A stretch of 64,000 bases of DNA from Candidatus Shapirobacteria bacterium. GTDB taxonomy: Bacteria > Patescibacteriota > Microgenomatia > 0-14-0-10-38-17. The position numbers were made by a program, and so were the translations under genes. The notes under the pieces were generated by a model. It searched no databases. It saw only the letters and a list, made by a program, of their open reading frames with translations, and was not told where the DNA came from. Shown in pieces: positions 10,743 through 60,663 of the stretch. Numbering within the stretch: position 1 is the first letter of the stretch; every line of letters begins with the position of its first letter. The DNA lies in the NCBI GenBank assembly GCA_018052565.1, contig JAGPNC010000003.1, forward strand, positions 587 through 64,586. Direction: 5' to 3'.

Positions 10743-11123
10743 TTGCCAAAAAAAGGAAGAAATGCTAAACTAACAATAATGATGACCAAACTTCTAGCGC
10801 AAGTTGACATTGGCCAAGAAACTCATATTAATCCTACCCAGGGAATCGGCGAGGCTCCTCAATTTAAAAGCATCCTGGGGTTAATTTCTACCATTCTTCC
10901 AAATTTGTATATGGCCGCTGGGTTAATCCTGCTTTTTTTCTTGATTTTTGGCGGCGTTATGGTTATATTAGGAGCAGGCAAGGGCGAAAGCCAACAAGCC
11001 GAGCAAGGCAAGAAAATTATTACCAACACCTTAATTGGCTTTCTGGTTATTTTTCTAAGCTATTGGATTATCCGCCTCGTGGAAATTATCACCGGGGCAA
11101 GAATTTTTAAATCGGGTTTATAA
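10743..11123 (+). CDS. TrbC/VirB2-family pilin-like protein (paralog 1; the true start may be the internal Met near 10779)
   Basis: Two TM segments flank a G-A-G-K-G-E motif. The hydrophobic C-terminal helix is LIGFLVIFLSYWIIRLVE, as in the paralogs. Confidence 0.55.
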   Translation: MPKKGRNAKLTIMMTKLLAQVDIGQETHINPTQGIGEAPQFKSILGLISTILPNLYMAAGLILLFFLIFGGVMVILGAGKGESQQAEQGKKIITNTLIGFLVIFLSYWIIRLVEIITGARIFKSGL

Positions 11124-11129
11124 ATAACC

Positions 11130-11489
11130 ATGGACAAAAAAATAAAGCCGCTTTTAGCGGGAATTGTGGGAGAAATCACCCCCCCCATCACCAGTTACCC
11201 GGATATTGAGCAAGGAGGCCTGGGAAGCTTCTTAAATAACATTTTAAAGCTGGTTACCACGGTGGCAGGTCTTTTTGCCCTTTTTAACTTTATCATGGCC
11301 GGCTATGGGTATATGTCGGCCAACGGCGATGAGAAAAAAATCCAACAGGCTTGGGCAAAAATTTGGCAAAGTCTTTTGGGATTAGTCATTGTGGCCGCTT
11401 CTTTTTTAATTGCCGCTCTGGCCGGCTGGATTCTCTTTAAAGACCCAACCTTTATCATTAACCCAAAAATCTATGGGCCGGGGCAATAG
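11130..11489 (+). CDS. TrbC/VirB2-family pilin-like protein (paralog 2)
   Basis: MAGYGYMSANGDEKK…LLGLVIVAASF motif. Confidence 0.6.
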   Translation: MDKKIKPLLAGIVGEITPPITSYPDIEQGGLGSFLNNILKLVTTVAGLFALFNFIMAGYGYMSANGDEKKIQQAWAKIWQSLLGLVIVAASFLIAALAGWILFKDPTFIINPKIYGPGQ

Positions 11490-11499
11490 TAGGGCGTAA

Positions 11500-11760
11500 C
11501 TTTTAATAAGCAAGCGCAAGGCGCAGCTTGAAATGTCAAATCTCAGGTAGAAATGTCAAAACGGAAATCTCAAAACTCAAAACTACATGTCAAAACTCAA
11601 ATCTAGAAAACAATTTTCTTTAGAAAAGTTTTGCCATTTGACATGTAGATTTACCATTTAAGATTTGCGATTTGAGATTTTTTGCCATTTGCCATTTGAG
11701 ATTTCTACTCGAGTTTTGAGATTTTCCAAAAACTGAGTAATTTAGCAATTGAGCAATTTA
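11500..11760. repeat. AT-rich palindromic spacer element, variant k-mer (aaatgtcaaatctcaaaactc)
   Basis: Arms gaaatgtcaaatctcag…ctcaaaactcaaaac versus gttttgagattt…tttgccatttgagatttc. Confidence 0.8.
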
Positions 11761-12147
11761 GCCATCTATTCTGTGTTTAATAAAATTATCCTCGCCAAAA
11801 CGATAGAAATTGCCCCCAGCGGCGGTCTCGAGGGGCTAGGCCCAACCGCGCCCGCCACTCCGACGGAAGTAGGCGAAAGCACCGCCCATCTTGTCTCTGT
11901 TGTTATTGGCTTTTTCACCCTCGTCGCTGGTCTTTGGTTTCTTTACCAGCTTATTTCAGGAGGTTATGCTTATATGAGCGCCGGCGGCAATAAAGAAAAA
12001 GCGCAGACAGCTAGTCAAAAAATGAGTCAGGCCCTAATCGGGCTGGTAATTGTTGTTTTGGCCATTTTTATGATTAATCTTTTAGGCTACATTTTAGGCA
12101 TTGACTTTTTGAATATTGGTAAAGTGATCCAAAACCTAACTTTTTAA
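11749..12147 (+). CDS. TrbC/VirB2-family pilin-like protein (paralog 3)
   Basis: ISGGYAYMSAGGNKEKAQ…ALIGLVIVVLA. Confidence 0.65.
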   Translation: MSNLAIYSVFNKIILAKTIEIAPSGGLEGLGPTAPATPTEVGESTAHLVSVVIGFFTLVAGLWFLYQLISGGYAYMSAGGNKEKAQTASQKMSQALIGLVIVVLAIFMINLLGYILGIDFLNIGKVIQNLTF

Positions 12148-12160
12148 GTTATTAACTAAA

Positions 12161-12499
12161 ATGGATGCGACACAAAGCGGTAGAATTGGAAATCCAATTG
12201 TCCCTACCGGTCTCCAGCAGCCACCCGCAGGGGCCCCGGGCACTCTTGGCCACATCCTCTCCACCGCTATCGCGTTGGCCTTAATTGGCGCCAGCATTGT
12301 TTTCCTCTTTATTATCATCAGTAGTGGTATTTCCTATATGACCGCCGGGAGTGACAAAGAAAAAAAAGTGGCTGCTTCCGCCCGACTCACCAATGGTGTT
12401 ATCGGCCTAGCGGTCGTTTTTTTCATTTTTGCTATCGCTAAACTTTTCTCTTCCCTTTTTGGTGTTAACCTGCTAAAATTTACTATTCCTAAGCTTTAA
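12161..12499 (+). CDS. TrbC/VirB2-family pilin-like protein (paralog 4)
   Basis: SGISYMTAGSDKEKK…GVIGLAVVFFI. Confidence 0.65.
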   Translation: MDATQSGRIGNPIVPTGLQQPPAGAPGTLGHILSTAIALALIGASIVFLFIIISSGISYMTAGSDKEKKVAASARLTNGVIGLAVVFFIFAIAKLFSSLFGVNLLKFTIPKL

Positions 12500-12517
12500 T
12501 TTAAAAATAAAAAGGAG

Positions 12518-12880
12518 GTGAAAAAAATGTTTAACGTTCTTGCTGTGGCTGGGGAACCAACTATCGTAGTCAGCGCCCCAACGGGATGGGAAGGTCCCGG
12601 AGCCTTAACCGCCGGATCAATTATCAGCGGCGCGATCCAGTTAATATTAATCATCGCCGCTCTTATTTTTTTCTTTCTCTTAATTATCGGCGGTATTCGT
12701 TGGATGACGGCGGGGGGAGACAAGGAAAAAGCGGGCGGAGCGCGGGGTCAGTTGACCTCGGCCTTAATTGGCTTGGCCATTGTTTTTGCCGCCTGGGCTA
12801 TTATTCGTTTAATCGAAACCCTTTTTGGCGTCTCTATCATCAGTGGCTTTACTATTCCCTCTTTCGTGCCAAAACAATAA
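12518..12880 (+). CDS. TrbC/VirB2-family pilin-like protein (paralog 5)
   Basis: IGGIRWMTAGGDKEKAG…ALIGLAIVFAAW. An RBS-like aaaggaggtg precedes the ATG. Confidence 0.7.
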   Translation: MKKMFNVLAVAGEPTIVVSAPTGWEGPGALTAGSIISGAIQLILIIAALIFFFLLIIGGIRWMTAGGDKEKAGGARGQLTSALIGLAIVFAAWAIIRLIETLFGVSIISGFTIPSFVPKQ

Positions 12881-12894
12881 TTTTTAAGCCTAAG

Positions 12895-13269
12895 ATGTCT
12901 CTTAAAAAAGGAGAAGAGGAAGAAAAAAGAATGAGCCTGCTGGCGGCATCTATTACGGGATGGCAAACAAACCCCACCTATGTGGCGGAGGGGGATGTGC
13001 CAACTATTTATGGCCTCGAGGGGGTTGTGACTAATATCTTGAATATCATAATCTCTGTCGTAGGGGCGATCCTTTTGTTCACCCTAATTATGGGCGGGTT
13101 TCGGTATATTACCTCCGGCGGAGACAAAGAACAAACTGCCAAGGCCAAAAAAACTCTCACCTATGGCATTATTGGTCTCCTAGTAGTTATGGGCGCATGG
13201 TTGATTATCCGTCTTATCGAAGAATTTACAGGCTTAAATCTGCATATTTTTCAAATTCCAAAAATATAG
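12895..13269 (+). CDS. TrbC/VirB2-family pilin-like protein (paralog 6)
   Basis: MGGFRYITSGGDKEQTAKAKK…GIIGLLVVMGAW. I trimmed the ORF-track start (12586) to the first in-frame ATG after the upstream gene. Confidence 0.6.
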   Translation: MSLKKGEEEEKRMSLLAASITGWQTNPTYVAEGDVPTIYGLEGVVTNILNIIISVVGAILLFTLIMGGFRYITSGGDKEQTAKAKKTLTYGIIGLLVVMGAWLIIRLIEEFTGLNLHIFQIPKI

Positions 13270-20238: not shown

Positions 20239-21108
20239 GTGGAACAGCATCCCATTCCCCAACACATTTCGTCTTACGAGTTTCGCCTTATTGGTGAAAT
20301 GACCCTGGGCCAGTTTGCCCGCGTCGCCGGCGGAGTAATTGTAGCGCTTATTTTTTATGCCCTCCCCCTGCCCGGCTTTATTGGGTGGTTTTTAGTTCTC
20401 CTTTCGGCCGGCTTAGGAATCGCCTTCGCTTTCCTCCCCGTTGAGGGTCGACCACTGGAAGTTTGGCTTCTTGCTTTTCTTCGCTCAATTTATTCCCCCA
20501 CGCAATATGTTTGGCGAAAAGTGGTTGCCTCTTTTGATTTCCAAACCCAAACCCCCTCTCCCGAAGAAACCGTACCAGCAATTTCTGCCTCAAAAACCCT
20601 GACACCCCAAGAGCTGGCCCTTCTGCGCACTTTCGGACAGAAGGATACTGAGTTTTATAGCGAGGAAGAAATTAAGAAAGCCCAGGCGTTTCTCGCTCTT
20701 TATCAGCAGCCTGCCAACGCGACGCCTTCTCCTTCTTCGTTGACTGACATTAAAAAAGAAGAAAAAGCCAAAGAAGCCCGCTTCGAGGAAGGCCTTCCCT
20801 TCCCTGCTCCCCCAGATGAACCAAACATCATTGTCGGCATGGTTATCGATAAAAACGGCAAAATCGTGGAAGGAGCCATTATTGAGATAAAGAGCAGGGA
20901 GGGGGAAACCGTCCGGGCAATGAGGAGCAACAAATTAGGACAGTTTCGGACAATTTCTCCCCTGGTAAACGGCGAATACCGAATTTCCTGCGAGAAAGAG
21001 GGGCTTAATTTTGATATAATGAAAATTAAACTTGAGGGAAAAATTCTCCCGCCGGTAGAGATAAGAGAAAAGGGCCCTAAAACAACAAATAATACCCAAG
21101 AGGAATAG
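20239..21108 (+). CDS. PrgI/VirB3-like T4SS membrane protein with C-terminal carboxypeptidase-regulatory-like beta domain
   Basis: The N-terminus (SSYEFRLIGEMTLGQFARVAGG) matches the PrgI-family pattern, followed by two TM segments. GTG start. It sits two genes upstream of the VirB4-like gene. Confidence 0.5.
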   Translation: MEQHPIPQHISSYEFRLIGEMTLGQFARVAGGVIVALIFYALPLPGFIGWFLVLLSAGLGIAFAFLPVEGRPLEVWLLAFLRSIYSPTQYVWRKVVASFDFQTQTPSPEETVPAISASKTLTPQELALLRTFGQKDTEFYSEEEIKKAQAFLALYQQPANATPSPSSLTDIKKEEKAKEARFEEGLPFPAPPDEPNIIVGMVIDKNGKIVEGAIIEIKSREGETVRAMRSNKLGQFRTISPLVNGEYRISCEKEGLNFDIMKIKLEGKILPPVEIREKGPKTTNNTQEE

Positions 21109-21275: not shown

Positions 21276-22052
21276 GTGCCTGACCAAAAAAACCCGCCCG
21301 TCCGCGCCTCTACCCAAGAAGCCATACCTGTCGAGGACATTCGCGACAATTTGGTTATTTTAAAAGACGGCTCGGCGGCGATGATTCTCCAGATTAGCGC
21401 CCTAAATTTTGACCTCCTTTCCCAAAGAGAGCAAGAGGCGCTGATTTTTGCCTATGGCAGCCTTCTTAATTCCCTTAATTTTTCGGTGCAGATTTTTATT
21501 CGCTCCCAAAAAAAAGATATCACCGGTTATCTCTCGCTTTTGGACAAAGCCAAGGACAACCAAACCAATCCTCTTCTTAAAAAATTAATCACCGATTATC
21601 AAAAATTTATCAAAGAAGTGGTTACCAAAACAGAGATTTTGGATAAAAAATTTTATCTGGTTATTCCTTTTTCCTCTCTTGAGTTAGGGTTTGGAGCAGC
21701 GGCAAAAAGCATCACCAAAAGCCTGCCGCTTTTCAAAAAAACCACTCCTTCTCAAAAATTGGACCTAATTGAAGTTTCCCAAAAAGCCCAAACTTCTCTT
21801 CTCCCTAAGCGAGACCATTTGATCCGACTTTTCTCCCGCCTCGGCCTTTCTGCCCGCCAATTAACCACCAACGAACTTATTTATCTTTTCTTCCGGATTT
21901 ATAACCCCAATGCCAAAGGAATCGAGCCGGCTCTGACCAAAGAGTATCTCTCTCCTCTAACTACCAGCCTCTTGATCCCACCGAAAATTGAAGAAGGACA
22001 AGCATCGCCAGATCAGGGGAAACAAAAAGAACAAGCAGTTCGTAATACGTAG
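21276..22052 (+). CDS. hypothetical T4SS-associated protein
   Basis: 258-aa ORF with a GTG start inside the conserved TTTTTCCGTGCCTGACC leader. Confidence 0.45.
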   Translation: MPDQKNPPVRASTQEAIPVEDIRDNLVILKDGSAAMILQISALNFDLLSQREQEALIFAYGSLLNSLNFSVQIFIRSQKKDITGYLSLLDKAKDNQTNPLLKKLITDYQKFIKEVVTKTEILDKKFYLVIPFSSLELGFGAAAKSITKSLPLFKKTTPSQKLDLIEVSQKAQTSLLPKRDHLIRLFSRLGLSARQLTTNELIYLFFRIYNPNAKGIEPALTKEYLSPLTTSLLIPPKIEEGQASPDQGKQKEQAVRNT

Positions 22053-22054
22053 GC

Positions 22055-22270
22055 TGTAATCTCAAATCTTAAAACGCAAATGTCAAATCTAAAACGCAAA
22101 ACGCAAACCTGCCTTGCCGGCAGGCAGGATTCAGGATTAAAAAATGCAAAAATCAAAGATCAAAAATCAAAATGAAAATGTAAAATGCAAAAAGAATTTT
22201 CTTTGGATCTTAACAATTTTTGAATTTTAATCTTTCATTTTGACTTTTAACTTTTGACTTTTAATTTTTT
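22055..22270. repeat. composite spacer with GC hairpin core (cctgccttgccggcagg at 22108-22135)
   Basis: k-mer arms (aatctcaaatct…, …ttttgacttttaacttttgactttt) around the GC hairpin. Confidence 0.75.
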
Positions 22271-22274
22271 TTCC

Positions 22275-24128
22275 ATGCCTAATCCTATCAACCAACTATT
22301 AGAAAAAATTAAACCTCCTAAAAAAGAAAGCCCGGCAAAAGAGGCCGCCGCCGCAAAAGAAAGCGGCGAAACTTTCGGCGCCGGCGTGCCCACCATTAAA
22401 GATATCATCGCCCCCTCGGCCATCGAGGTTGACTTTTCCTATCTTAAAATTGACAATAAATATTTGCGAACTTTTTTTGTAGCTGGCTATCCCCGTTTCG
22501 TTTCCGCTAACTGGCTCTCTCCTTTAATTAATTTTGACCACACCTTGGATATTTCTATGTTTATTTATCCGGTAGAAATAAAAGGAACTATGGACGATCT
22601 ACGCCGGAAAATTGCCGAAATGGAAGCGGAAATTTCCACCGATATCCAGCGAGGGCGAGTTGTTGACCCCTCCACCCAGGCTAAATTGGAAGACGCCTTG
22701 GCGCTTCAGGAAGAATTAGCCAAAGGAACCGAGCATTTCTTCCAGTTCGGCCTTTATATCACTATTCCCGCCGATTCCCTCCAGGAGTTGGAAGAGGTAA
22801 GCCGTGAAGTTGAGGCCACCCTGGGGTCGCTTTTAATCATTGCCAAAACAGCGAGCCTGCAAATGGAAGAAGGTTTTAAAACCACTCTCCCTATTGGCAT
22901 TGATTTTTTGAACATCAGCCGTAATATGGATACCACCTCGCTGGCGACCACTTTCCCCTTTACTTCTTCGGAGCTCACGGCCAACGAAGGAATTTTATAT
23001 GGCGTTAATCAACATAATGGTTCTTTGGTTATTTTTGATCGCTTCAATCTGGAAAATTCTAATGCCGTTATTTTTGGCAAGTCCGGCTCAGGAAAAAGCT
23101 ATCTGGTAAAACTTGAAGCCCTCCGTTCTTTAATGATGGGAACAGAATTAATTATTATTGACCCGGAAGAGGAATACCGCCAGCTGAGCGAGGCCGTTGG
23201 AGGAGAATATATTAAGTTTGGCTTTGGCTCACGGGCAAAAATTAACCCCTTTGACCTTCCCAGCCAGCAATTATCATTCCCGGGTGAAAAAACAGAAAAT
23301 GAACTTGGCTTCAAGCTTCTTTCCCTCCACTCTCTCTTAAAAATAATGTTAGGGGAAATGAGCGCTAATGAAGAGGCCATCCTTGACCGGGCGCTGGTGG
23401 CCACTTATAAAAGCAAGGGAATTACCCCCGATCCTGTTACTTACGAACAGGAGCCGCCGCTTTTAGAAGATCTTTACAAAACTCTTCTGGGAATGGAGAG
23501 CAAAGAAGGTCAACTTTTAGCCACCCGTTTGGAAAAATTTGTTAAGGGTTCGCTGACGGGGATTTTTGACCAGCATTCTAATGTTAATCTAAAAAATCCG
23601 TTTACGGTTTTTTCCCTAAAAGACGTTGAGGGTGACTTAAGGCCGGTGGTGATGTTTATTATCCTTGATTACATTTGGACCAAAGTAAAGGCCGAGATTA
23701 AAAAAAGAATCGTCATTGTTGACGAAGCGTGGTATTTAATGCGTTATCCTGATTCGGCCCAATTTTTGGAATCGATCGCCAAAAGAGCGCGTAAATATTA
23801 TTTAGGCCTTTCCACCATCACCCAAGATGTTCCCGACTTTCTCTCCTCGCCCTATGGAGAATCAATTATCACCAACTCTTCTGTGCAAATTTTAATGAAA
23901 CAGCATCCGGCCGCCATCGACCGCTTAGGGGAGGTCTTTTATCTCTCCGAAGGAGAGAAAAATTTTCTTTTATCCGCCAATATCGGCGAGGGGCTCTTCT
24001 TTGCCGGGGACAATCATGTGGCGATTAAGGTAATTTCCTCCCCCCAAGAGCATAAGTTAGTCGGTTCCAGTCCGAAAGAAAAAACAGTCGCGGTGGCCAA
24101 AGAAGCCAAAGAAACGGAAGAAAAATAA
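22275..24128 (+). CDS. VirB4/TraE/PrgJ-family type IV secretion ATPase
   Basis: Walker A GKSGSGKS and Walker B VIVDEAWY. The N-terminal region is typical of PrgJ/TrsE. I set the start at the ATG at 22275; the ORF-track start (22254) lies inside the repeat. Confidence 0.8.
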   Translation: MPNPINQLLEKIKPPKKESPAKEAAAAKESGETFGAGVPTIKDIIAPSAIEVDFSYLKIDNKYLRTFFVAGYPRFVSANWLSPLINFDHTLDISMFIYPVEIKGTMDDLRRKIAEMEAEISTDIQRGRVVDPSTQAKLEDALALQEELAKGTEHFFQFGLYITIPADSLQELEEVSREVEATLGSLLIIAKTASLQMEEGFKTTLPIGIDFLNISRNMDTTSLATTFPFTSSELTANEGILYGVNQHNGSLVIFDRFNLENSNAVIFGKSGSGKSYLVKLEALRSLMMGTELIIIDPEEEYRQLSEAVGGEYIKFGFGSRAKINPFDLPSQQLSFPGEKTENELGFKLLSLHSLLKIMLGEMSANEEAILDRALVATYKSKGITPDPVTYEQEPPLLEDLYKTLLGMESKEGQLLATRLEKFVKGSLTGIFDQHSNVNLKNPFTVFSLKDVEGDLRPVVMFIILDYIWTKVKAEIKKRIVIVDEAWYLMRYPDSAQFLESIAKRARKYYLGLSTITQDVPDFLSSPYGESIITNSSVQILMKQHPAAIDRLGEVFYLSEGEKNFLLSANIGEGLFFAGDNHVAIKVISSPQEHKLVGSSPKEKTVAVAKEAKETEEK

Positions 24129-24358: not shown

Positions 24359-27300
24359 ATGCCCGACCAAGACAAATTAATTCTTTCCCGCCAAACGGCA
24401 GAACTCTTGCTTCAGGGAATCGCCTTTTTTAAAGAAAACCCGACCGCCAAAAAATGGAAAAACCTAGATAAAGACCTTTTTATTTTTCTTTGCCGCGAAC
24501 TTTGCCAACTCCCCCTTGAGGAAGAAGAAAATTTTGATGAATATCTTGCTCGTGCCGAAGAACTTTTAAAAAGAATCATCGGCGAAGAACTTACTGCCCC
24601 CTCCCTGCCCCAAAACTTGGAAGAACTAGTTGAGGCCTGGGAAAGCTTTGCTACCCAAAAAGATGCCCAAGCCCCTCCTTCTCCAAGAATTAACCTGCCA
24701 ACAGTCGAGGATTGGATTAAAGCTTTAAAAGAAAAAAGAGTTGAAGAAGAAATTGCTCCCCGGGTGAGAAAGGCTCTTCAAACCACCCTCCCCCACCTTT
24801 CCCAGAAAGACCAGGCCAGCCTTGGGAAACAAATTAGCCAGGAAATTGCCAAATCCCCCTTCTTTGTCCTTCCCCAAGAAGAAAAAGAGGCAGTGGTCCA
24901 AAGAGCAGTAGAAAAAAGCCTTGGGGAAAAGCAAATTGTCCTTGGCGAAGAGCAAAAGCAAGCCTTAGCAAAAGCAATGGTAACCCCTTCTCTTCCTCGA
25001 AAAGAGCCGAAGCCAAAAGAAACGATCACCCCTCCTGTTTTTAAAAAATTCCAAGAACAGATTGAACAAGTTTTAAGAACATCCTTAGAGACAACAGGAA
25101 AAATTGACGAAGAAACCCTTGCTGAGTTGAGTCCTTTAATAAGCGGGGCAGTGGCTTCGAATCTCCCTCTTCTATCCCAAGGCGAATTAGAAGCCCTCAG
25201 CCTAGCCGATAAGAGCAAAATTGCCGAGGGAACAACCACCGCCGCCTTAGGAACGATTGGTAAAGCTTTAGTGGCCAAAGGCATTAGTCTCTCCCCCAGC
25301 CAAACCGCCACCCTTTTAGATCAACTCACCATCACCGCCATCTCTAACTTAGAAAGTTTAGCGCCAGTTCTTCCGGAAAACCGCCTTCCCCAGGAAAAAA
25401 CCCCGGAGACGGAAGGAACCGCCACGCCAATTTTAACCTTTTTGCTCCATCCCAAGGAAACCGCCACCCTTATTCTTAACCCCCAAACAAGAAGAAGCCT
25501 TGAAGCTCTCGACAGAGACCCCTCTCTTCCTTTTAGTCTTGTTTTGGAAGGAGAGGAAACCTCTCGGGGAGAACAAATTAAAAATATTTTTCTCCTAAGG
25601 GGGATTAATTTTCAAAGCATTAATTTAGCCGCCCCCCTTGAAGAAGAAACCCAGGCTTTAGTATTGGCGGCCAAGGGAATCACCAGCGCCGATATTAGTT
25701 CCGCCATCAAAGCCGCCCGGGAGGAAAATTGGCCGGCCGAAGAAATAAGGAGGCTTGAGGAAATTTTTAGCCGTCAACTAAAATTTGAAAGAGATTTTCC
25801 TGGATTAACCCAACGGTTCTTTCGTTTCCGAAAAGCAAAAGAAATCATCTCGGGCCAAAAAAATGATCAAAGGCTACCTTCCCGCCCCTATCTTAAAATT
25901 AAAAGCCAAACCAGCTTTGACACTGCCAGATGGAAAGCCCTGAAAATCATTAATAGTTTTTTGGAGAAAATTGGCCTTGTGGAAAAAGAAACCACTGTTT
26001 CGGGAAAAATTATCCAATCCTCCAAAATCTGGTATTATCTCCAAAAAGCCTTCCAGCCGGTAGCTTCTTTTTGGCAAAAAACAAACATCGGGAAAACCAT
26101 TGCGGATTGGCTTTCAAGACAAACTTATCATTTTTGGCAAGACGCCTTGGGGCAAATAAGAGGATTTAGCCAGGCGGGAGTTAAGAAAGCGGTTCAGGAA
26201 GGAACCAAAAAAGGAGTCACTAAAGCAATCACCTGGCTTTCTACCAAATTGGCGGCCACCAAACTGGGAGCTGCTTTAGGCTCAATTGCCCCGGGAATAG
26301 GCAATGCGATAGGGGCAGTGGCCGGCTTTTTGGTTGATTTAGGAATATCTTTCTTTAAAAAGGGCGGCGAATTTTTAGAAAAACTTACCGGCGGCCAAAC
26401 CGAGGCGGAACAAAAGCTTAAAGTCGCCCTAGGACCATTTTCCTTCTTGGTTTCTCCTTTGGCAATTATTGTTATTGGTGCCGCCATTATCCCTCTTTTG
26501 CTTGTTTTTCACGATTCTGCCAACACCCAAAGTCTTTTTTTTGTTTCAGAGGACGGAGGGGGAGGAGTTCTTCCTCCTTCCTCACGCCTTATTTTGCCTT
26601 CTCTAGAATTGGCTGAGATAATCAAAAGGGCAGCTAAAGATATTTGTGTTCCGGAAGCCCTTCTTCTGGCAATCTCCAGAACTGAGGCCGCAAGGGCGTG
26701 GGGGTATTCCTCTGAAGAAGTCAAACTATTTTCTACCCCTAATTGGTGGGAAACACCCGGAGCTCCTATCTGTCGCGGCCTTTGTTATAACACTTGCAAC
26801 CCGGGAGAATGCAGCCAGTGGGACCCGGATTGCGCTTGGACTAATTATGGCGGCATCAGTCAAGAAGCGGATGTGCGGGGAGTTATGCAGTTTGAATTGA
26901 ACACTTTTAACGGTTATCGCAACGAGCTTTTGGGCATTTTAGGAAGAGAACCTCATCGCTGTCTTATTCCCGATTCCATCTATGCAGCAGCATTAAAAAT
27001 AAAAGCCGATAGCGGCACCGACAACACCCAATGCGATGATTGGTCAGACGAAATCGTCCGCAAAGTAGCCAAGGCCTACTGCGGCTCTTGTGATTCTCCT
27101 AATTGTCCCAATTATTGCGACATTGTCCTTTACTACTATCATGATTATCAAAATTCCCTAGATATTATCACTAATCCCTCCAGCAACCCCAACGGCCTAA
27201 TAGCTGAAAAAATCGCTGTTATTATGGCCAGATGCAACCATGATCCCGATGGCTATGGTTTCATTAACGCTTCGACCCAAAACGCCGCCATTGGTTGTTT

Positions 27301-27742
27301 GGAAAATTCTGACCTTGATTCTTCGGTTAAACAAAGACTAATCGCGATTATTAAAGATCAGGTCAGTAGATACGGAACCCTACAGTGCGTTGGTTTTATT
27401 CAGGCAATAGAAGGCAGTCTCTTTCCTTCTTGCGGTTCAAGCGCCAGTGATTGGGCCCAAGAAAAATGCTGGCAAAATAATAATTACTATTTCCTAAACA
27501 ACAATATTAGTCTTGTTCAGGAGGGAGACATCGCCGTAACTGCCGGAAGCAGTCCCGGCAGCAGTGGCCATATTGGCTTTATTACTAAAATCTATAGAGA
27601 TGGTAGCGGCAATATCCAAAAACTTCTTTTTGTTTCTGCTTGGGGTGGCGGCCAGGACGGGAATGGTGGTAATATTAATGCGAAGATCGTGCCCTGGGAC
27701 TATTTCACGAGCAGGGGCTATCTTTTTATCCATCGAAAATGA
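24359..27742 (+). CDS. T4SS cell-wall hydrolase, PrgK/VirB1-like (lytic transglycosylase + CHAP domains) with long N-terminal linker and TM segment
   Basis: SLT-like E…GVMQF segment around 26650-26900. A C-terminal CHAP-like Cys/His pair (C…GHIGFI). TM helix near aa 690. Confidence 0.65.
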   Translation: MPDQDKLILSRQTAELLLQGIAFFKENPTAKKWKNLDKDLFIFLCRELCQLPLEEEENFDEYLARAEELLKRIIGEELTAPSLPQNLEELVEAWESFATQKDAQAPPSPRINLPTVEDWIKALKEKRVEEEIAPRVRKALQTTLPHLSQKDQASLGKQISQEIAKSPFFVLPQEEKEAVVQRAVEKSLGEKQIVLGEEQKQALAKAMVTPSLPRKEPKPKETITPPVFKKFQEQIEQVLRTSLETTGKIDEETLAELSPLISGAVASNLPLLSQGELEALSLADKSKIAEGTTTAALGTIGKALVAKGISLSPSQTATLLDQLTITAISNLESLAPVLPENRLPQEKTPETEGTATPILTFLLHPKETATLILNPQTRRSLEALDRDPSLPFSLVLEGEETSRGEQIKNIFLLRGINFQSINLAAPLEEETQALVLAAKGITSADISSAIKAAREENWPAEEIRRLEEIFSRQLKFERDFPGLTQRFFRFRKAKEIISGQKNDQRLPSRPYLKIKSQTSFDTARWKALKIINSFLEKIGLVEKETTVSGKIIQSSKIWYYLQKAFQPVASFWQKTNIGKTIADWLSRQTYHFWQDALGQIRGFSQAGVKKAVQEGTKKGVTKAITWLSTKLAATKLGAALGSIAPGIGNAIGAVAGFLVDLGISFFKKGGEFLEKLTGGQTEAEQKLKVALGPFSFLVSPLAIIVIGAAIIPLLLVFHDSANTQSLFFVSEDGGGGVLPPSSRLILPSLELAEIIKRAAKDICVPEALLLAISRTEAARAWGYSSEEVKLFSTPNWWETPGAPICRGLCYNTCNPGECSQWDPDCAWTNYGGISQEADVRGVMQFELNTFNGYRNELLGILGREPHRCLIPDSIYAAALKIKADSGTDNTQCDDWSDEIVRKVAKAYCGSCDSPNCPNYCDIVLYYYHDYQNSLDIITNPSSNPNGLIAEKIAVIMARCNHDPDGYGFINASTQNAAIGCLENSDLDSSVKQRLIAIIKDQVSRYGTLQCVGFIQAIEGSLFPSCGSSASDWAQEKCWQNNNYYFLNNNISLVQEGDIAVTAGSSPGSSGHIGFITKIYRDGSGNIQKLLFVSAWGGGQDGNGGNINAKIVPWDYFTSRGYLFIHRK

Positions 27743-28790: not shown

Positions 28791-29258
28791 ATGAAAAGAA
28801 ATAATCTTTTTCTTGTTATCATCTTAGTCTTTGGAGTTGCTTTCTTATTCCTCAGGCAATTTATTGTCCAAACCGAAGAGGAAAATTCTTTATTCGAAAA
28901 AGATTACCACTCCATCTCGCCCACGAAAGAAGTTATTTCGCCCACGAAAGAAGTTATTTCGCCCACGAAAGAAGTTATTTCGCCCACGAAAGAAGTTATT
29001 TCGCCCACGAAAGAAGTTATTTCGCCCACAGAAGAAGAAATAGACTATCTCCAAAAAGAAAAACTCATAAGCCTTCTTCCTGTTAGAAAGTCAGATTTTG
29101 ATATGGAATATCTAGCTCAAGATAACGTCTTTATTGTTTTGATCTCCGCCAATGACTTCAATGCCGGAAAAAGAAAAGCAATCAGTTGGCTGGAAAGCCA
29201 AGGCATTAGTAACTGGGAAAAATTACCTCTTATCTGGGGAAAAAAGGGAGGATTTTAA
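28791..29258 (+). CDS. hypothetical membrane-anchored protein containing 6x SPTKEVI heptad repeats
   Basis: N-terminal TM, a tandem 21-bp coding repeat, and a C-terminal domain paralogous to 29308. Confidence 0.5.
   Translation: MKRNNLFLVIILVFGVAFLFLRQFIVQTEEENSLFEKDYHSISPTKEVISPTKEVISPTKEVISPTKEVISPTKEVISPTEEEIDYLQKEKLISLLPVRKSDFDMEYLAQDNVFIVLISANDFNAGKRKAISWLESQGISNWEKLPLIWGKKGGF
28917..29042. repeat. 6 x 21-bp perfect tandem repeat (tcgcccacgaaagaagttatt), last unit degenerate
   Basis: Read directly. It lies in frame within CDS 28791-29258, encoding (SPTKEVI)x5 plus SPTEEEI. Confidence 0.9.
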
Positions 29259-32695: not shown

Positions 32696-33022
32696 TTAAA
32701 GGAGCTCTACCCCTAAGATTATTTCCAAAAGGCGGACAATCCAGTAGCTTAAAAAGATGATTAAAAAACCAATTAGGGCGTTGGTGATTTGGCCCTGGGC
32801 CTTTTTGGCGGCCTCTTCGTTGCCGGCCGCGGTAAGATAATTGAATCCGCCGATTAAAAGATAGACAAAAGTGGCAATACCGGCAAGGGGGAAAACATAA
32901 ACAAGAAGGCGGGAAATGATATCGCCGATAGTGCCCCAGTCTTTAATGGGGGGGTTGTCAACGACAGTCGGCAGATCGATATCTTTGTACTTGGGAATGG
33001 TGATATTATCAACAAGTTTCAT
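32696..33022 (-). CDS. TrbC/VirB2-family pilin-like protein (paralog 7)
   Basis: GGFNYLTAAGNEEAAKKAQGQITNALIGFLIIFLSYWIVRLLE. Confidence 0.6.
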   Translation of the reverse strand: MKLVDNITIPKYKDIDLPTVVDNPPIKDWGTIGDIISRLLVYVFPLAGIATFVYLLIGGFNYLTAAGNEEAAKKAQGQITNALIGFLIIFLSYWIVRLLEIILGVELL

Positions 33023-33170: not shown

Positions 33171-34253
33171 CTATTCTAGCCCCGGCAGGCCCAGAATATC
33201 AACTCCGATTAGGCGCAGGAGGAACAAAGAGAGAATAACAAAAATTAAGCCGGTAATGGCGGAAGTAATTGTTTCTTTGGCCCCCTGGATTTTTTGGGGA
33301 TCGCCAGAGGAGATTATTATTTGGATACCGGAGAAAACAATTAAGCCAAAAACGGCCAGCCCGCCGAAACCTAAAAGATAGGGAAAAAGCCACTTTACTA
33401 AATTCATGGGATCGGTGGGGATACAGCCGAAAGCGGTCCAGGCATTGCCATTACTGAAGCAATTACTGCAGGCCTCGTCGCCTTGGCAAATATCGTACAC
33501 TTCCGTGTCGGGCCCTCCTATTTGGGGCTGGCCAATATACCCCGGATTTTCTGCGTTAGGGCCGACAAAGACATGAATGGAGCAAGCAAGATAATTCGTT
33601 GCGCCGCCGCCAGCAAGACTGTAAAGACGAAAGTAATAACTACCACTGAGTTTTGGCTCAAGAGAAACGGCGCTTTTATTTTTCTCGAAACGATCTTCAT
33701 TATTATCAGGCTTGGCGACTTTTATTTGAAAATCTCCCTGGGGAATAACGTCGCTAATATTAGTGACTTTAACATCGATCCTTGTGTTTTTAAAAGGTTT
33801 GTCGGGGGTAATTTCCCACTTACAATTTGTGCTGGGCTTAATGCTAATATCCCCTTCGCAAATGTTTGTTCCGTCTGAATATTCGAGTTTTATTTTATAA
33901 TCTCCAATATAAGTAAAATTGTGGATAACCTCTAAAATTTTGCCTTCTTTTGCTTTTTCCGAAATATCAACGTTAGGAATTGCCCCGCCCCCATCAATAC
34001 TAATTTGATATTCTTCTTCCTTAACGATTTGCTCGCTTCTTATGGTTAAAGTATTATTGCCTAACCGGCCGGGGCTAACTGTTACTGAAGAACAAGAATT
34101 TGCCGCTATTGCCGTCCCGGGATAGCTTAAATAAAAACGAAAGAAAATGGCGAAAATTAAAAGGAGAGGAAGGATTTTTTCTTTTTTCATTTTATTAATA
34201 CTAAATTTAGTTTTTACCCTATCGGGGGATATCCTAATAGTTGTACATATCAT
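33171..34253 (-). CDS. secreted beta-rich protein fused to C-terminal TrbC/VirB2-like pilin module
   Basis: Signal peptide. The C-terminal 80 aa (IISSGDPQKIQGAKETITSAITGLIFVILSLFLL) match the pilin paralogs. Confidence 0.5.
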   Translation of the reverse strand: MICTTIRISPDRVKTKFSINKMKKEKILPLLLIFAIFFRFYLSYPGTAIAANSCSSVTVSPGRLGNNTLTIRSEQIVKEEEYQISIDGGGAIPNVDISEKAKEGKILEVIHNFTYIGDYKIKLEYSDGTNICEGDISIKPSTNCKWEITPDKPFKNTRIDVKVTNISDVIPQGDFQIKVAKPDNNEDRFEKNKSAVSLEPKLSGSYYFRLYSLAGGGATNYLACSIHVFVGPNAENPGYIGQPQIGGPDTEVYDICQGDEACSNCFSNGNAWTAFGCIPTDPMNLVKWLFPYLLGFGGLAVFGLIVFSGIQIIISSGDPQKIQGAKETITSAITGLIFVILSLFLLRLIGVDILGLPGLE

Positions 34254-39375: not shown

Positions 39376-39385
39376 TTTCTGCACA

Positions 39386-39749
39386 GGTGGAGATGGGGAG
39401 GAATGACCTCCCGTCCGAAAAAAACCCTTCTGAATTTCTCCAAGCTCAGTTAGCCCTTTAAATTTTCTTTTGGGATTTTCGCTGCTAACCGCTTTTCCCA
39501 AAAATAGCCTTTAATTCTCTGCTTTTTTTCTTAAGGCGAAGAAAAAAAGCGCCTCTTGCCTTCCGTTTTCACCTTCCCTGCCCCGACAAGAGAGGGAAAA
39601 GAAGATGCTTTTCCTTACGCGAAAGCGTAATTCAAAGAGTAGTCGACATTATTGTCGGCATTCTTTTTTGGTGAATTTTGACAGGGTAATCACCTTCCCT
39701 GGCTTGCCCTTCAGAACAGGCTTTCTCCGTCGATTCAAAGAGCATCCCC
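39386..39749 (-). ncRNA. ssrA: transfer-messenger RNA (tmRNA, SsrA)
   Basis: The 5' end GGGGAUGCUCUUUGAAUCGACGG matches the tmRNA consensus GGGGCUGAUUCUGGAUUCGACGG. The 3' end GGACGGGAGGUCAUUCCUCCCCAUCUCCACC closes an acceptor stem carrying the G3·U wobble. Internal tag reading frame: ADNNVDYSLNYAFA-UAA. The gene lies directly downstream of smpB. Confidence 0.7.
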
Positions 39750-39900
39750 AAAAAACTAAATTCAAAATTCACAAGTCAAAAATCAAAAGTACAAGTAAAA
39801 ATTCAAAATTGAAACAAAAACTTTTAACCTTTTACTTGTAATTTTGACTTTTGAGTTTTAACTTTTGACTTTTCTACGCAATTTGGCCATTTAGCAATAG
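39750..39900. repeat. AT-rich palindromic spacer element between smpB and ssrA
   Basis: aaattcaaaattcacaagtcaaaaatcaaaagtacaagtaaaaattcaaaattg… mirrored by ttttacttgtaattttgacttttgagttttaacttttgactttt. Confidence 0.75.
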
Positions 39901-39911
39901 AACAATTTAAT

Positions 39912-40313
39912 TTAATACTCTCTTCTCTCTCTTTTTTCTTTTCCTTTTTTCTTCTTTTTCCCTAATCCTACTTTTAGCTTAATCAAATTGCCCTTATTAT
40001 ACCATTCTAAGGCTAAAGGCGTCAACTTTTGTTGCTTAACTTTGTTATGGAGAGCCAGAATTTCTCTTTTTTTTAAAAGCAGGCGACGGCTTTGGCGGGG
40101 ATTAGGGGGGTTAAGGCCGGCCGCCGGTTGATAAGGGGCGATATAAGCGTTTTCCAAAAAAGCCTCGCCCTTTTTAATATTAATTAAACTTTGGTCAAGG
40201 GTCCCCTGCCCGGCGCGCAAGCTTTTTACCTCCGGACCGCTTAAGGCTATCCCCGCCTCAAGTTCGTCTAAAATTAAATAATCGCGATAGGCTTTATGAT
40301 TTTTGATAAGCAC
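39912..40313 (-). CDS. smpB: SsrA-binding protein
   Basis: YEILDELEAGIALSGPEVKSLR and a basic C-terminal tail. Confidence 0.85.
   Translation of the reverse strand: MLIKNHKAYRDYLILDELEAGIALSGPEVKSLRAGQGTLDQSLINIKKGEAFLENAYIAPYQPAAGLNPPNPRQSRRLLLKKREILALHNKVKQQKLTPLALEWYNKGNLIKLKVGLGKKKKKGKEKRERREY

Positions 40314-42636: not shown

Positions 42637-42647
<11 letters not shown>
42399..42647 (-). CDS. hypothetical small protein
   Basis: An 82-aa ORF whose start overlaps the upstream gene. Confidence 0.35.
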
Positions 42648-44284
<1,637 letters not shown>

Positions 44285-44819: not shown

Positions 44820-45000
44820 AAATCTCAAATGTCAAATCTCAAGTAGAAATGTCAAAACGCAAATCTCAAAACTCAAAACTAAGAAATATTTTAAATTTTA
44901 AAAAGTTTTAACGTTTACCGTGTAGTTTTGCCATTTGACATTTGCGATTTGAGATTTTTTTGCCACTTGAGTTTTGAGATTTCTAAGCCATTTAGCGATT
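44820..45000. repeat. AT-rich palindromic spacer element, aaatgtcaaatctcaa variant
   Basis: Same variant k-mers as the 11500-11760 copy. Confidence 0.75.
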
Positions 45001-58056: not shown

Positions 58057-59967
58057 ATGGAAAACTTATTAGACAATTTAAAAAACTTACTTAAAAAAGA
58101 CGAACGGCTGGTGAGCGAAGGCGAGCTTTTGAAAAACAAAATTGTTGAGTTAGCTTTAAAATTGGATAAGGACTTGATTGAACTTCTTTTATCTGATGAA
58201 AAAATAAAAGAAGTATTTTTTAGGCAAGTTGGTAAAGCTGCAATTTTTGACAAAGATAAGTTTATTAAGTTTGTTTCCAATAAGCAATTTTTACCGGATA
58301 GTTATACTGCTTTTAAAAATAAGATTGGTTTAACAGTTGATGATGAATTTATTAGCGAGAAAAAAGAAGTTGTTCTTTCTTGGCCTTATAAGGACTGTGT
58401 TTTAGAAGGCGGAATGACCAAGGAAGACCAAAAGCGAGATGAAATTTTCTGGAACCAAACACTTGCGCCGGATGAAATCAGCCGCCTTTTAGACCCGAAA
58501 GTTTTTACTAATGCAAAAAGGATTGATAAAAACGGCGAACATAAATTTGATGGATTTAAAACAGATGAAAACGGAGATATAAAAGACAATCTCATCATCA
58601 AGGGCAACAATCTTTTAGCCCTCCACTCCCTCAAAAAACGCTTTGCCGGAAGAGTAAAACTCATTTACATTGATCCGCCGTATAATACTGGAGGTCCGCA
58701 GGATACTTTCACTTACAACAACAGCTTTAAACACTCTACATGGCTAACCTTTATAAAAAATAGGCTGGAGATAGCCAAGAGTCTTTTACAGGAGGATGGA
58801 TTTATTGCAATAACGATTGACCATGTTGAGCTTTTTTACCTGGGGGCACTAGCTGATGAGGTATTTGGGAAAGAGAACAGGATTGGAATAGTAACAATTT
58901 ATATAAACCCTAAAGGGAGACAGCATGAAAAATTTTTTGCTGCCTCGACTGAGTATATGCTGGTTTATGCAAAAAACATAAAAGCTGCGAAGTTTAATAA
59001 GGTTATCCTGGATGAGGAGAAGGCAAAGAAATTTAATTTAGAAGATGAACGTGGAAGATATAGATTAGAACCTTTTATAAGAGCAAGAACAGATACCCTT
59101 AGAAAGAATAAACCAGATTTTTGGTATCCAATTTATGTAAGTAAAGACCTAAAAGAAATAATTTTAGAGAGAAAACCCAACTATTACGAAGTTTGGCCGG
59201 TTAAAAACGGTAAAGAATTTACGTGGAAAACAATTCCGGAAACTTTTGATGAAAGAAATTCCAAAGGTTATTTTGTTGCTAAAAAAGAAAACGAGAGAAT
59301 TGTCATTTATCATAAATTCTACGAACAGCAAGTTTTAAAAAATATATGGATAGACAAAAAGTATTTTCCAGAATTCCAGGGCACTCAATTACTTAAAAAA
59401 CTTTTAGGGGAATCCAAGTTTAGTTATCCAAAGTCATTATACGCCGTACGGGATACTCTCAAGATAATGACGAAAAATGATGATTTAATACTTGATTTTT
59501 TCGCCGGGTCAGGAACAACAGGGCATGCAACTTTAGAACTTAACAAACAAGATGGTGGGAAGAGAAAATTTATTTTGGTTGAGCAACTTGATGAACATTT
59601 ATCAGTTATAAGGGAAAGAATGAAAAAAGTTTTTGAATATCTAGATGGTGGTGATTTTATTTATTTAGAACTAATGAAATGGAATGAGAATTTTATTGAG
59701 AAAATAAAGAAAGCAAAAACAAAAGAAGAATTAAAGAGATTATGGGAGACAATAAAGGAAAAAGCGTTTTTGAGTTATAAAGTTGATGTAAAAGCGATTG
59801 ATGAAAATGCAAAAGATTTTGCTGATTTATCTATTGAAAACCAGAAAAGATTTTTAGTTGAGTGTTTAGACAAAAATCATCTTTATGTAAATTATAGCGA
59901 AATTGATGATGAAGAGTATGGAGTAAGCAAGGAAGATAAAAAGTTAAATAAGGAGTTTTATGGATAA
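58057..59967 (+). CDS. mod: Type III restriction-modification methyltransferase (Mod)
   Basis: IYIDPPYNTG catalytic motif, FFAGSGTTGHA AdoMet motif, and the overall Type III Mod layout. Confidence 0.8.
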   Translation: MENLLDNLKNLLKKDERLVSEGELLKNKIVELALKLDKDLIELLLSDEKIKEVFFRQVGKAAIFDKDKFIKFVSNKQFLPDSYTAFKNKIGLTVDDEFISEKKEVVLSWPYKDCVLEGGMTKEDQKRDEIFWNQTLAPDEISRLLDPKVFTNAKRIDKNGEHKFDGFKTDENGDIKDNLIIKGNNLLALHSLKKRFAGRVKLIYIDPPYNTGGPQDTFTYNNSFKHSTWLTFIKNRLEIAKSLLQEDGFIAITIDHVELFYLGALADEVFGKENRIGIVTIYINPKGRQHEKFFAASTEYMLVYAKNIKAAKFNKVILDEEKAKKFNLEDERGRYRLEPFIRARTDTLRKNKPDFWYPIYVSKDLKEIILERKPNYYEVWPVKNGKEFTWKTIPETFDERNSKGYFVAKKENERIVIYHKFYEQQVLKNIWIDKKYFPEFQGTQLLKKLLGESKFSYPKSLYAVRDTLKIMTKNDDLILDFFAGSGTTGHATLELNKQDGGKRKFILVEQLDEHLSVIRERMKKVFEYLDGGDFIYLELMKWNENFIEKIKKAKTKEELKRLWETIKEKAFLSYKVDVKAIDENAKDFADLSIENQKRFLVECLDKNHLYVNYSEIDDEEYGVSKEDKKLNKEFYG

Positions 59968-60661
59968 GTTACCGTTCTCCTTAAATTTTTTCAAACAAAT
60001 TGAATGTTTTCAGGAAATCGAGCGTTTAGATAAACAATTTGATGAAATGCTTCTCGAATGGAAAAAGGGCGGATATAAAAAGGGGGGTATTTCAGAAAGT
60101 ATCAACATTAACTATCCTACTTGGGAAATAGAAAAGAAGATTCTTTTTTGGGCATCCAGAGAACATAAGCATCTTGGTTCTCCTATTACAACTACCCATT
60201 TATCTGATGAAAGTTTTCAAAAAGATATACATTGCACAGAAACAGAATTAGAGTTTGCTGGAAAAGAGGAAGTATTAAAAAACCTCACTAGTAGAGGATT
60301 AGCGTCTTGGCAAAATGGCGCTGTTGTATCCCAAAAAGGATTGGACTATGGTCTTGTTATTGCTGATTTATATGAGATAAAAAAGGATGAGAATATTAAA
60401 AGAGGAGAGACGGAATATAGGGAAGAGCTTCTTGTTAAGAGGAAGATTAGATGGTTTGGATATAAATTAATTTACTTTTCTGCTCTCACCTTAATATTTT
60501 CCAGTTTAATCTTTTTAGGGCTAGAGATTTTTAGAGCTGCGAATATTGCTATACCATTTTTGAATATTACTATAAAAACGGGATTAAAATATTTAGTAGT
60601 TTTAATGGGTTTTATTCCAGCTTTTTTATTTTTGTTAGGTTTATTTTTTTCAAATATATAA
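59960..60661 (+). CDS. hypothetical protein with two C-terminal TM helices, inserted between mod and res
   Basis: A 233-aa ORF that overlaps the mod stop and ends 2 nt before res. Confidence 0.45.
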   Translation: MDKLPFSLNFFKQIECFQEIERLDKQFDEMLLEWKKGGYKKGGISESININYPTWEIEKKILFWASREHKHLGSPITTTHLSDESFQKDIHCTETELEFAGKEEVLKNLTSRGLASWQNGAVVSQKGLDYGLVIADLYEIKKDENIKRGETEYREELLVKRKIRWFGYKLIYFSALTLIFSSLIFLGLEIFRAANIAIPFLNITIKTGLKYLVVLMGFIPAFLFLLGLFFSNI

Positions 60662-60663
60662 CT

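Follow-up and report, generated by a model that had tools for sequence, protein, structure and literature searches.

Eight pilin-family genes in two blocks

The 64,000-nucleotide stretch analysed here (hereafter the window) comes from Candidatus Shapirobacteria bacterium (assembly GCA_018052565.1, contig JAGPNC010000003.1, positions 587 to 64,586) and carries eight genes whose products match PF18895, a family of pilins from type IV secretion systems (T4SSs), six of them in a tandem block (p1 to p6) and two (p7 and p8) adjoining dnaA and dnaN (Table 1). PF18895 was the top match for each of the eight products (E 6.9e-13 to 2.5e-5), and seven of them, scoring 26.8 to 48.9 bits, exceeded the curated gathering cut-off of 26.6 bits; p4 was the exception. 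The orthologs of p4 in two relatives (L002_g6 and L004_g6) carry PF18895 in their precomputed annotation, and a hidden Markov model (HMM) derived from 32 ortholog and paralog sequences matched p4 with an E-value of 2.3e-32. Run against a six-frame translation of the window, this model recovered exactly eight segments (E 5e-38 to 1e-23) and no ninth copy at E ≤ 10; agreement of this strength goes well past what chance would produce. The original prediction, made from the DNA letters, had placed six consecutive small genes at 10743-13269 and two further copies beside dnaA. The six were confirmed as forward-strand open reading frames (ORFs) at these coordinates, and both additional copies were found, the seventh at 32696-33022 and the eighth in the C-terminal ~90 amino acids (aa) of 33171-34253. 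Profile searches assigned all eight products to the T4SS pilin family, not to an unrelated family of small membrane proteins.

The products of the six tandem genes are 112-132 aa long. Comparison with orthologs indicates that the true start of p1 is likely the ATG at 10779, giving 114 aa, and p5 probably starts at the ATG at 12527 (117 aa). The p6 gene is the distal portion of a longer ORF (12586-13269); with its start at 12895, the product is 100% identical to the NCBI protein KBI33_00985, and it has 66 homologs, several of them with the NCBI name 'pilin'; homologs so named by NCBI come from Shapirobacteria and Patescibacteria. In the case of p8, the NCBI start gives a protein of 339 aa (33171-34190) that is 100% identical to KBI33_01060. 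The eight copies are divergent in sequence, with a mean paralog identity of 27.8% (range 20.7-41.7%). Neighbouring genes within the array are separated by 6-18 bp, except for the p2-p3 gap, which holds an inserted element. The loop motif given in the original prediction held in five copies (p2 YMSANGDEKK, p3 YMSAGGNKEK, p4 YMTAGSDKEK, p5 WMTAGGDKEK and p6 YITSGGDKEQ), was looser in p7 (YLTAAGNEEA) and p8 (IIISSGDPQK), and was poor in p1 (VILGAGKGES).

Table 1. Features of the pilin locus, in window coordinates (g1 to g8, genes of the ancestral array as assigned by all-against-all BLAST)
Feature	Coordinates	Strand	Evidence and remarks
p1, pilin (g3)	10743..11123	+	PF18895 30.3 bits, E 4.5e-7
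p2, pilin (g4)	11130..11489	+	PF18895 30.5 bits; orthologs 53-56% identical
Imperfect palindromic repeat, ~200 bp	11490..11748 (p2-p3 gap)		Inverted arms 11531-11604 and 11627-11724
p3, pilin (g5)	11749..12147	+	PF18895 26.8 bits; orthologs 41-44% identical
p4, pilin (g6), most divergent family	12161..12499	+	PF18895 24.7 bits, below the 26.6 cut-off
p5, pilin (g7)	12518..12880	+	PF18895 37.9 bits
p6, pilin (g8), last of the array	12895..13269	+	PF18895 48.9 bits, E 6.9e-13
Signal-anchored protein, 711 aa	13301..15436	+	No Pfam/NCBIfam match; N-terminal hydrophobic segment; directly 3' of the array
Polytopic membrane protein, 457 aa	15476..16849	+	Signal peptide, several hydrophobic segments; unrecognised by Pfam
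PrgI (VirB3-like) with C-terminal CarboxypepD_reg	20239..21108	+	PF12666 E 9.5e-7; PF13620 E 9.7e-7
TraC-like protein	21276..22052	+	Weak PF11130; orthologs PF26593 TraC-like
VirB4-like ATPase	22254..24128	+	PF19044 E 2.4e-29, AAA_10, DUF87
Membrane protein, 1127 aa, C-terminal CHAP	24359..27742	+	PF05257 E 1.2e-5; syntenic in relatives
dnaA	31270..32613	-	
p7, pilin (g2)	32696..33022	-	PF18895 40.3 bits
p8, fusion pilin (g1)	33171..34253	-	PF18895 on residues 294-349, 33.6 bits

The AlphaFold2 models of p6 and p8 both show a PF18895 feature, a pair of hydrophobic helices with a short polar loop between them. The p6 model consists of a helical hairpin (residues 38-73 and 78-111) with predicted local distance difference test (pLDDT) values of 73-89 across the hairpin, and in the p8 model (pLDDT 86.3) the pilin hairpin occupies residues 261-293 and 298-333. 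The latter protein is a fusion: its signal peptide is followed by a pair of FN3-like beta-sandwich domains that match tandem FN3 at E ~1e-7 in Foldseek, then by a Cys-rich linker carrying a conserved AWTA(L/F)GCIPTDP sequence, and last by the C-terminal pilin hairpin. Among 98 homologs of p8, the C-terminal ~90 aa were up to 89% identical and the N-terminal domain was common to only 7. The ectodomain is swapped wholesale across lineages, relatives having unrelated ones such as the Cys-rich repeats of L098 and L099; the gene 1 pilin module is the most conserved of the set, and the ectodomain fused to it is variable. As modelled, this architecture is the one expected for a subunit in which a conserved module for polymerisation would serve as the anchor of a host-binding domain that varies.

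Since p8 has a signal peptide and an ectodomain ahead of the first transmembrane helix (TM1), the family topology would place the segment preceding TM1 outside the cytoplasm, and the canonical signal peptides of homologs from Bacillaceae agree with this orientation. In the small pilins the corresponding segment has no canonical hydrophobic region; in many orthologs 6-20 residues precede a conserved (V/L)(L/F/W)A-Q sequence. A segment ending in this way was found in most small pilins of L002, L004, L006, L097 and L098, and its Ala is invariant in 45 orthologs of p6. An AxA|Q signal-peptidase site occurs in all eight genuine VirB2 sequences compared, and the short segment of these Candidate Phyla Radiation (CPR) proteins appears to resemble that site. 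Counted by hand, the net charge of the small-pilin loops is between 0 and +2, for which the positive-inside rule is not decisive.

Orthology, gene order and the case for distinct subunits

A single contiguous array of eight genes was found in four relatives (L002, L004, L006 and L097), and L005, from another sample, has the same arrangement as L004. In the four relatives the array follows a SpoIID gene on the opposite strand and consists of a fusion pilin of 265-374 aa and seven small pilins; it is followed by genes for a large secreted protein, a VirB6-like protein, PrgI, a TraC-like protein, VirB4 and a CHAP protein. All-against-all BLAST placed each of the eight window genes at one position of this array, and the best match of every window paralog was its positional ortholog, with 34-76% identity vs 28-49% to the best paralog of the same genome. 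For individual genes, the closest sequences to p1 were L002_g3, L004_g3 and L006_g3 (61-66% identity), and the orthologs of p7 were 51-59% identical, reaching 75% in L096. Within the conserved core, orthologs were 60-84% identical and paralogs 32% on average; in the region preceding TM1, the identity between orthologs was 33-57%. The order p8-p7, then p1-p2-p3, is also kept in L098, where the gene 1 pilin module is only 51% identical. The fixed order together with the one-to-one orthology indicates ancient duplications and a stable set. This pattern favours eight non-redundant paralogs with what would be distinct roles, and it is easier to reconcile with a heteropolymer or with division of labour than with a fast-turnover cassette for antigenic variation.

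The original prediction had named antigenic or host-range variation and a heteropolymer as possible reasons for the diversification, and these data disfavour the first and suit the second. In the variation reading, which is also offered in PMC12102498 by analogy to the VirB2 paralogs of Bartonella and Anaplasma, any of the paralogs could take the place of another as major subunit, so that different surfaces are shown to different hosts. The extracellular N-terminal regions are indeed the least conserved (33-57% vs 60-84% for the core), and the p8 ectodomain has been replaced wholesale among lineages. Nevertheless, the one-to-one orthology and fixed order hold across the five array loci and also in more distant relatives, no recent duplicates exist (the top paralog identity being the 41.7% given above), and no repeats or signals of recombination were seen of the kind that variation cassettes usually have. 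The short spacing of the genes (p2-p3 excepted) likewise stands against this reading, as does a consensus scan for promoters and terminators over the array, in which counts equalled the shuffled expectation and no internal signal rose above chance; because of this chance-level result, operon substructure could not be inferred. We therefore regard interchangeable surface variants as unlikely.

With respect to differences in expression among the eight genes, p5 was the only pilin gene with a strong Shine-Dalgarno sequence, AAGGAGG, located 9-10 nt upstream of the ATG at 12527 (12505-12527). A purine-rich equivalent occurs upstream of g7 in L002, L004, L006 and L097, making five genomes with the window, with a longer spacer before the motif in the relatives. 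In the whole window, p5 is almost alone in having so strong a motif; even as a 4-mer, a Shine-Dalgarno-like motif was present in just 4 of the 42 other genes. With the sole strong conserved ribosome-binding site of the set, p5 is the best candidate for a major-subunit role; this is weak evidence that it may be the most highly translated of the eight.

The secretion gene neighbourhood and its rearrangements

The cumulative GC skew of the window reaches its minimum at ~28-32 kb, at dnaN and dnaA, which indicates that the locus is chromosomal and lies near the replication origin. The genes for PrgI, the TraC-like protein, VirB4 and the CHAP protein are located 7-11 kb downstream of the six-gene block; in L002, L004, L006 and L097 they come directly after the array. 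Neither a type IV coupling protein (T4CP) nor a relaxase was found among all large ORFs of the window. The 711-aa protein encoded next to p6 has a very Cys-rich C-terminal portion of ~130 residues; its syntenic genes in the relatives encode proteins of 525-826 aa with 26-30% identity, one of them with a weak Cellulase match, and the protein is possibly secreted, as a partner of the T4SS or as its substrate. The 457-aa membrane protein that follows is syntenic in all relatives (37-56% identity), and the equivalent position in a Pontibacillus cluster described below is occupied by a TrbL/VirB6-like protein, which makes it a candidate divergent VirB6; VirB6 homologs are called 'scarce' in Microgenomatia in the literature, divergence being the presumed cause. 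Two cytoplasmic proteins with no assigned function are encoded on the opposite strand between this gene and that of PrgI. The 1127-aa CHAP protein is predicted to act as a VirB1-like cell-wall hydrolase, and its gene is followed by one for a Big_5 protein.

In comparison with the contiguous arrays, that of the window is interrupted, with g2 (p7) and g3 (p1) no longer adjacent. The synteny map fits a single inversion from p1 to dnaA, at ~10.7-32.6 kb (~22 kb), whose breakpoints fall within the pilin array at one end and beside dnaA at the other, from a proposed ancestor in which SpoIID, g1 to g8 and the T4SS genes were followed by dnaN and dnaA on the reverse strand and by the PFOR operon. The position of p7 and p8 beside dnaA is best explained as the result of this putative inversion. 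An assembly artefact behind the split array was considered and ruled out, since the same order (SpoIID, g1, g2, dnaA, dnaN, and Big_5, CHAP and VirB4 on the reverse strand) occurs in L096, an independent 598-kb contig from another species. A search for inverted repeats at the junctions at 10.7 kb and 32.6 kb yielded only chance 8-11-mers, so there is no evidence of repeat-mediated flipping or of an assembly flip. A different single inversion, in L004 and L016, splits the alpha and beta genes of the PFOR operon. In the more distant relatives L098 and L099 a block of ~8.5 kb with mevalonate-pathway genes comes after g1-g2, and in L098 the genes from g3 onward follow this block. The g2/g3 boundary is thus a recurrent breakpoint, and this recurrence suggests that the locus may comprise two modules, one of g1 and g2 and the other of g3 to g8 with the machinery.

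The element in the p2-p3 gap is an imperfect palindrome composed of units of ~7 nt (AAATCTC/AAATGTC ... TTTGCCA/TTTGAGA). Folded as RNA, it gave a minimum free energy of -68.4 kcal/mol (z = -4.4). The unit family had 21 matches against 2.5 expected, and it also occurs at 44820-44982, 22064-22086 and 39844-39859. In the relatives the g4-g5 gap measures only 6-19 bp and the palindrome is absent, for which reason it appears to be inserted; it looks like a repetitive extragenic palindromic (REP) or miniature inverted-repeat transposable element (MITE)-like insertion, and might influence how the transcript is processed or how strongly the pilins on its two sides are expressed relative to each other.

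Other features of the window include a small signal-anchored protein encoded at 28791-29258, between the T4SS block and dnaN, with six tandem SPTKEVI heptads, the last one in the variant form SPTEEEI. The tmRNA gene (39385-39749, reverse strand; Rfam RF00023, 121 bits) lies beside smpB (39912-40313), in a neighbourhood kept in all relatives. Two stretches of low GC content (0.30-0.34 in both) encode restriction-modification functions, a TdeIII-type endonuclease with an N4/N6 methylase at 42637-44260 and a Type III system at 58057-63255 (Mod 58057-59967, Res 60664-63255), and both are probably horizontally acquired islands.

Affinities and possible function of the pilin set

A tblastn search of 72,556 plasmids with p6 retrieved two Bacillaceae megaplasmids, Pontibacillus NZ_CP062975.1 and Priestia NZ_CP045273.1, and queries with p6, p7 and two Bacillaceae homologs gave credible matches in these two records only. 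The Pontibacillus cluster (351801-361354) encodes, in this order, a pilin, a second pilin-like protein, a TrbL/VirB6-like protein, a VirB3-like protein, a TraC-like protein, VirB4 and a large peptidoglycan hydrolase. Its pilin bears the name of the NCBIfam model NF045849 (Mbov_0395 / MMCAP2_0565 pilin-like conjugal transfer protein) in the annotation and scored 47.4 bits on PF18895. Its TraC-like protein (274 aa) and its CD1110-family VirB4 were 30% (E 3e-26) and 39% (E 8e-142) identical to the respective window proteins. In Priestia, where the PF18895 pilin-like gene lies at ~689167-689562, VirB3-like, TraC-like and VirB4 proteins were also detected; both plasmids are typed 'non-mobilizable'. 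By gene order and sequence comparison, these Bacillaceae T4SS clusters are collinear with the CPR locus, and the pilin-like gene thus occurs in monoderm Bacillota. It has been suggested in print that the CPR pilin might be co-opted from diderm systems. The two Bacillaceae clusters bear on the source of this gene.

NF045849, whose cut-off is 40 bits, was matched below this threshold by all eight window proteins (17.0-33.9 bits, E 1.9e-8 to 3.5e-3), more consistently across the copies than PF04956, the TrbC/VirB2 family by which the original prediction had proposed to check the genes. It is probable that the eight genes are pilin-family (PF18895) genes of a chromosomal, origin-proximal T4SS, which is the best explanation of the eight paralogs as a whole. 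The T4SS itself resembles the conjugation T4SSs of Gram-positive bacteria. We propose only tentatively, and with less than even confidence, that the genes encode an ancient, fixed and ordered heteromeric surface structure, in which p8 and p7 would form an adhesin module, p5 the major subunit and the other five proteins minor ones, and that the pilin gene is native to a monoderm T4SS lineage shared with Bacillaceae megaplasmids and the integrative and conjugative elements (ICEs) of Mycoplasma, and is not a Gram-negative co-option.

Several results weigh against the best explanation as given above and against its inferred parts. In searches with PF04956, the best score was 21.4 bits (p2, E 3e-4) against a cut-off of 27.9 bits; p3 reached 16.2 bits, and the other six proteins gave nothing at E ≤ 1. 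An hhalign comparison of the 32-sequence CPR alignment with a narrow set of eight genuine alphaproteobacterial VirB2/TrbC sequences fetched from plasmids gave a probability of 0.65% (E 0.087); the alignment, not significant, was co-linear from helix 1 through the loop to helix 2. A profile of the 45 p6 orthologs retrieved no solved T4SS pilin from the PDB sequences, only matches of the hydrophobic-helix or composition type, FliQ and a 'flagellin' from an archaeon among them. With the p6 model as query, Foldseek returned nothing significant, the match of highest probability being the conjugation pilin of A. pernix (8dfu; 0.66, E = 4). None of the seven small pilins has a canonical signal peptide, and upstream extension of their ORFs is impossible, so that N-terminus-out insertion is inferred only from their likeness to p8 and to the homologs of Bacillaceae. 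The putative roles of p5 and p8 are read solely from a ribosome-binding site and a domain architecture, respectively. Finally, we know of no direct evidence for a pilus from any Patescibacterial T4SS, and to our knowledge Gram-positive T4SSs are normally pilus-free. Because the PF04956 scores fall below threshold and the hhalign result is not significant, the window proteins are 'VirB2-like' by family name, architecture and genomic context, and neither membership in PF04956 nor direct homology to VirB2/TrbC is demonstrated, although 5 of the 66 p6 homologs have precomputed matches to both PF04956 and PF18895. The original assignment to the TrbC/VirB2 pilins of CPR bacteria holds in what concerns a T4SS pilin family, the linkage to T4SS genes and the CPR genome, with one correction, PF18895 being the family matched and not PF04956.

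In the mechanism we envisage, the subunits would insert with both termini outside and the Lys-rich '...GGDKEK...' loop in the cytoplasm, and a platform of VirB4, VirB3-like and VirB6-like proteins would extract them and build from them a filament outside the cell or a conduit across the wall, which the CHAP protein would open. Contact with the host would be provided by p8, probably in adhesion or display, with p7 as its partner; p5 would form the bulk of the structure, with the other small pilins as minor or structural components. 

It is also conceivable that these proteins are small membrane subunits of the T4SS channel, or of a short stalk through the wall and S-layer, with no extended filament. 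Such a role is presumed for the 'pilin-like' proteins in Mycoplasma ICEs and Bacillaceae clusters, and the sub-threshold matches of all eight copies to NF045849 are in line with it, as are the homologous pilin-VirB6-VirB3-TraC-like-VirB4 clusters in Bacillaceae, monoderm T4SSs not being known for pili. In Gram-negative bacteria, too, VirB2 is needed for the channel itself. Nevertheless, eight distinct conserved subunits, one of them with a large ectodomain, exceed what would be expected for lining a channel, and a pilus is considered plausible in reviews (PMC12857230). The data here do not discriminate between a long and a short filament, and we consider a channel role without any filament quite improbable. 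Lastly, the proposal that these are unrelated small proteins with two transmembrane segments (holin-like, or small oxidase or transporter subunits) matching PF18895 by hydrophobic composition, for which one could cite weak secondary matches to VIT1, Cyt_bd_oxida_II, DctQ and TctB, two homologs named 'cytochrome bd-type quinol oxidase subunit 2' by JGI and the composition-type PDB matches, is highly improbable, as PF18895 ranks first in each of the eight and clears its cut-off in seven, the polar motif of the loop and the conserved C-terminal segment are specific, and the linkage to T4SS genes, invariant in more than seven genomes and found also in Bacillaceae, effectively refutes it.

The locus can be set against known systems. 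From a survey in which PF04956 and PF18895 were run on 3,035 genomes of Patescibacteria, 441 'VirB2 arrays' of 2-11 pilins were reported in 383 assemblies, with enrichment in Microgenomatia, a mean array identity of 25% (maximum 54%), T4SS genes often near dnaA/dnaN, and relaxases mostly absent (PMC12102498; Quinonero-Coronel et al. 2025). The window, with its six plus two tandem genes and a virB4 gene, is an array under the definition used there (two or more pilin genes, either tandem or one non-pilin gene apart, in a Patescibacteria genome with virB4). It shares with those arrays the tandem PF18895 genes on a CPR chromosome, near virB4 and dnaA and with no relaxase or T4CP detected, a comparable identity (27.8%, maximum 41.7%), a copy number within the 2-11 range, and its place in Microgenomatia, one of the two classes richest in arrays. 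In the cultivated Southlakia epibionticum, the pilin series of the T4SS cluster, six pilins in the SEML1_0006-0019 region, is essential (PMC10633639, Wang et al. 2023; see also PMC12857230). A 2024 perspective calls the function of these T4SSs 'completely unknown' (PMC11665869). The locus is therefore one more example of the described Patescibacteria arrays and no new kind of system. A term search of PMC12102498 and PMC10633639 did not retrieve the one-to-one orthology and order, the fusion of a variable ectodomain to gene 1 or the g2/g3 boundary, nor the small pilins without canonical signal peptide, the TM7x array being called 'Sec secreted'; what is added here, namely the observations on orthology, fusion, module boundary and Bacillaceae, is of modest value.

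Like the VirB2/TrbC/TraA proteins of the T-pilus and F-pilus, the window proteins are small two-helix hairpins with a short basic loop, encoded in a T4SS cluster and, in many copies of the family, bearing a short N-terminal segment that ends in Ala-Gln; unlike them, they lack a long signal peptide (p8 excepted), their loop is ~7 residues longer, no VirB5, VirB7, VirB9 or VirB10 partner is present, and the host is a monoderm. The NF045849 systems of Mycoplasma ICEs and Pontibacillus are close in that their model is matched by all eight proteins and the Pontibacillus cluster is collinear, but they have one or two copies vs eight here, and canonical signal peptides. The effector T4SSs of Bartonella and Anaplasma phagocytophilum also have tandem divergent pilin paralogs, which are read as antigenic variants (cited in PMC12102498), whereas here the one-to-one orthology points to fixed roles.

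Few systems have been shown to be essential to a cultivated Patescibacterium in its epibiotic life, and the T4SS with its pilin array is one of them. The data presented here single out two kinds of gene within such arrays, the p5-like one as the possible major subunit and the p8-like one as the possible adhesin, and the Bacillaceae clusters suggest themselves as possible tractable models in monoderms. Altogether, an ordered set of eight subunits with a swappable ectodomain predicts a heteromeric organelle of host contact and argues against a variable coat.

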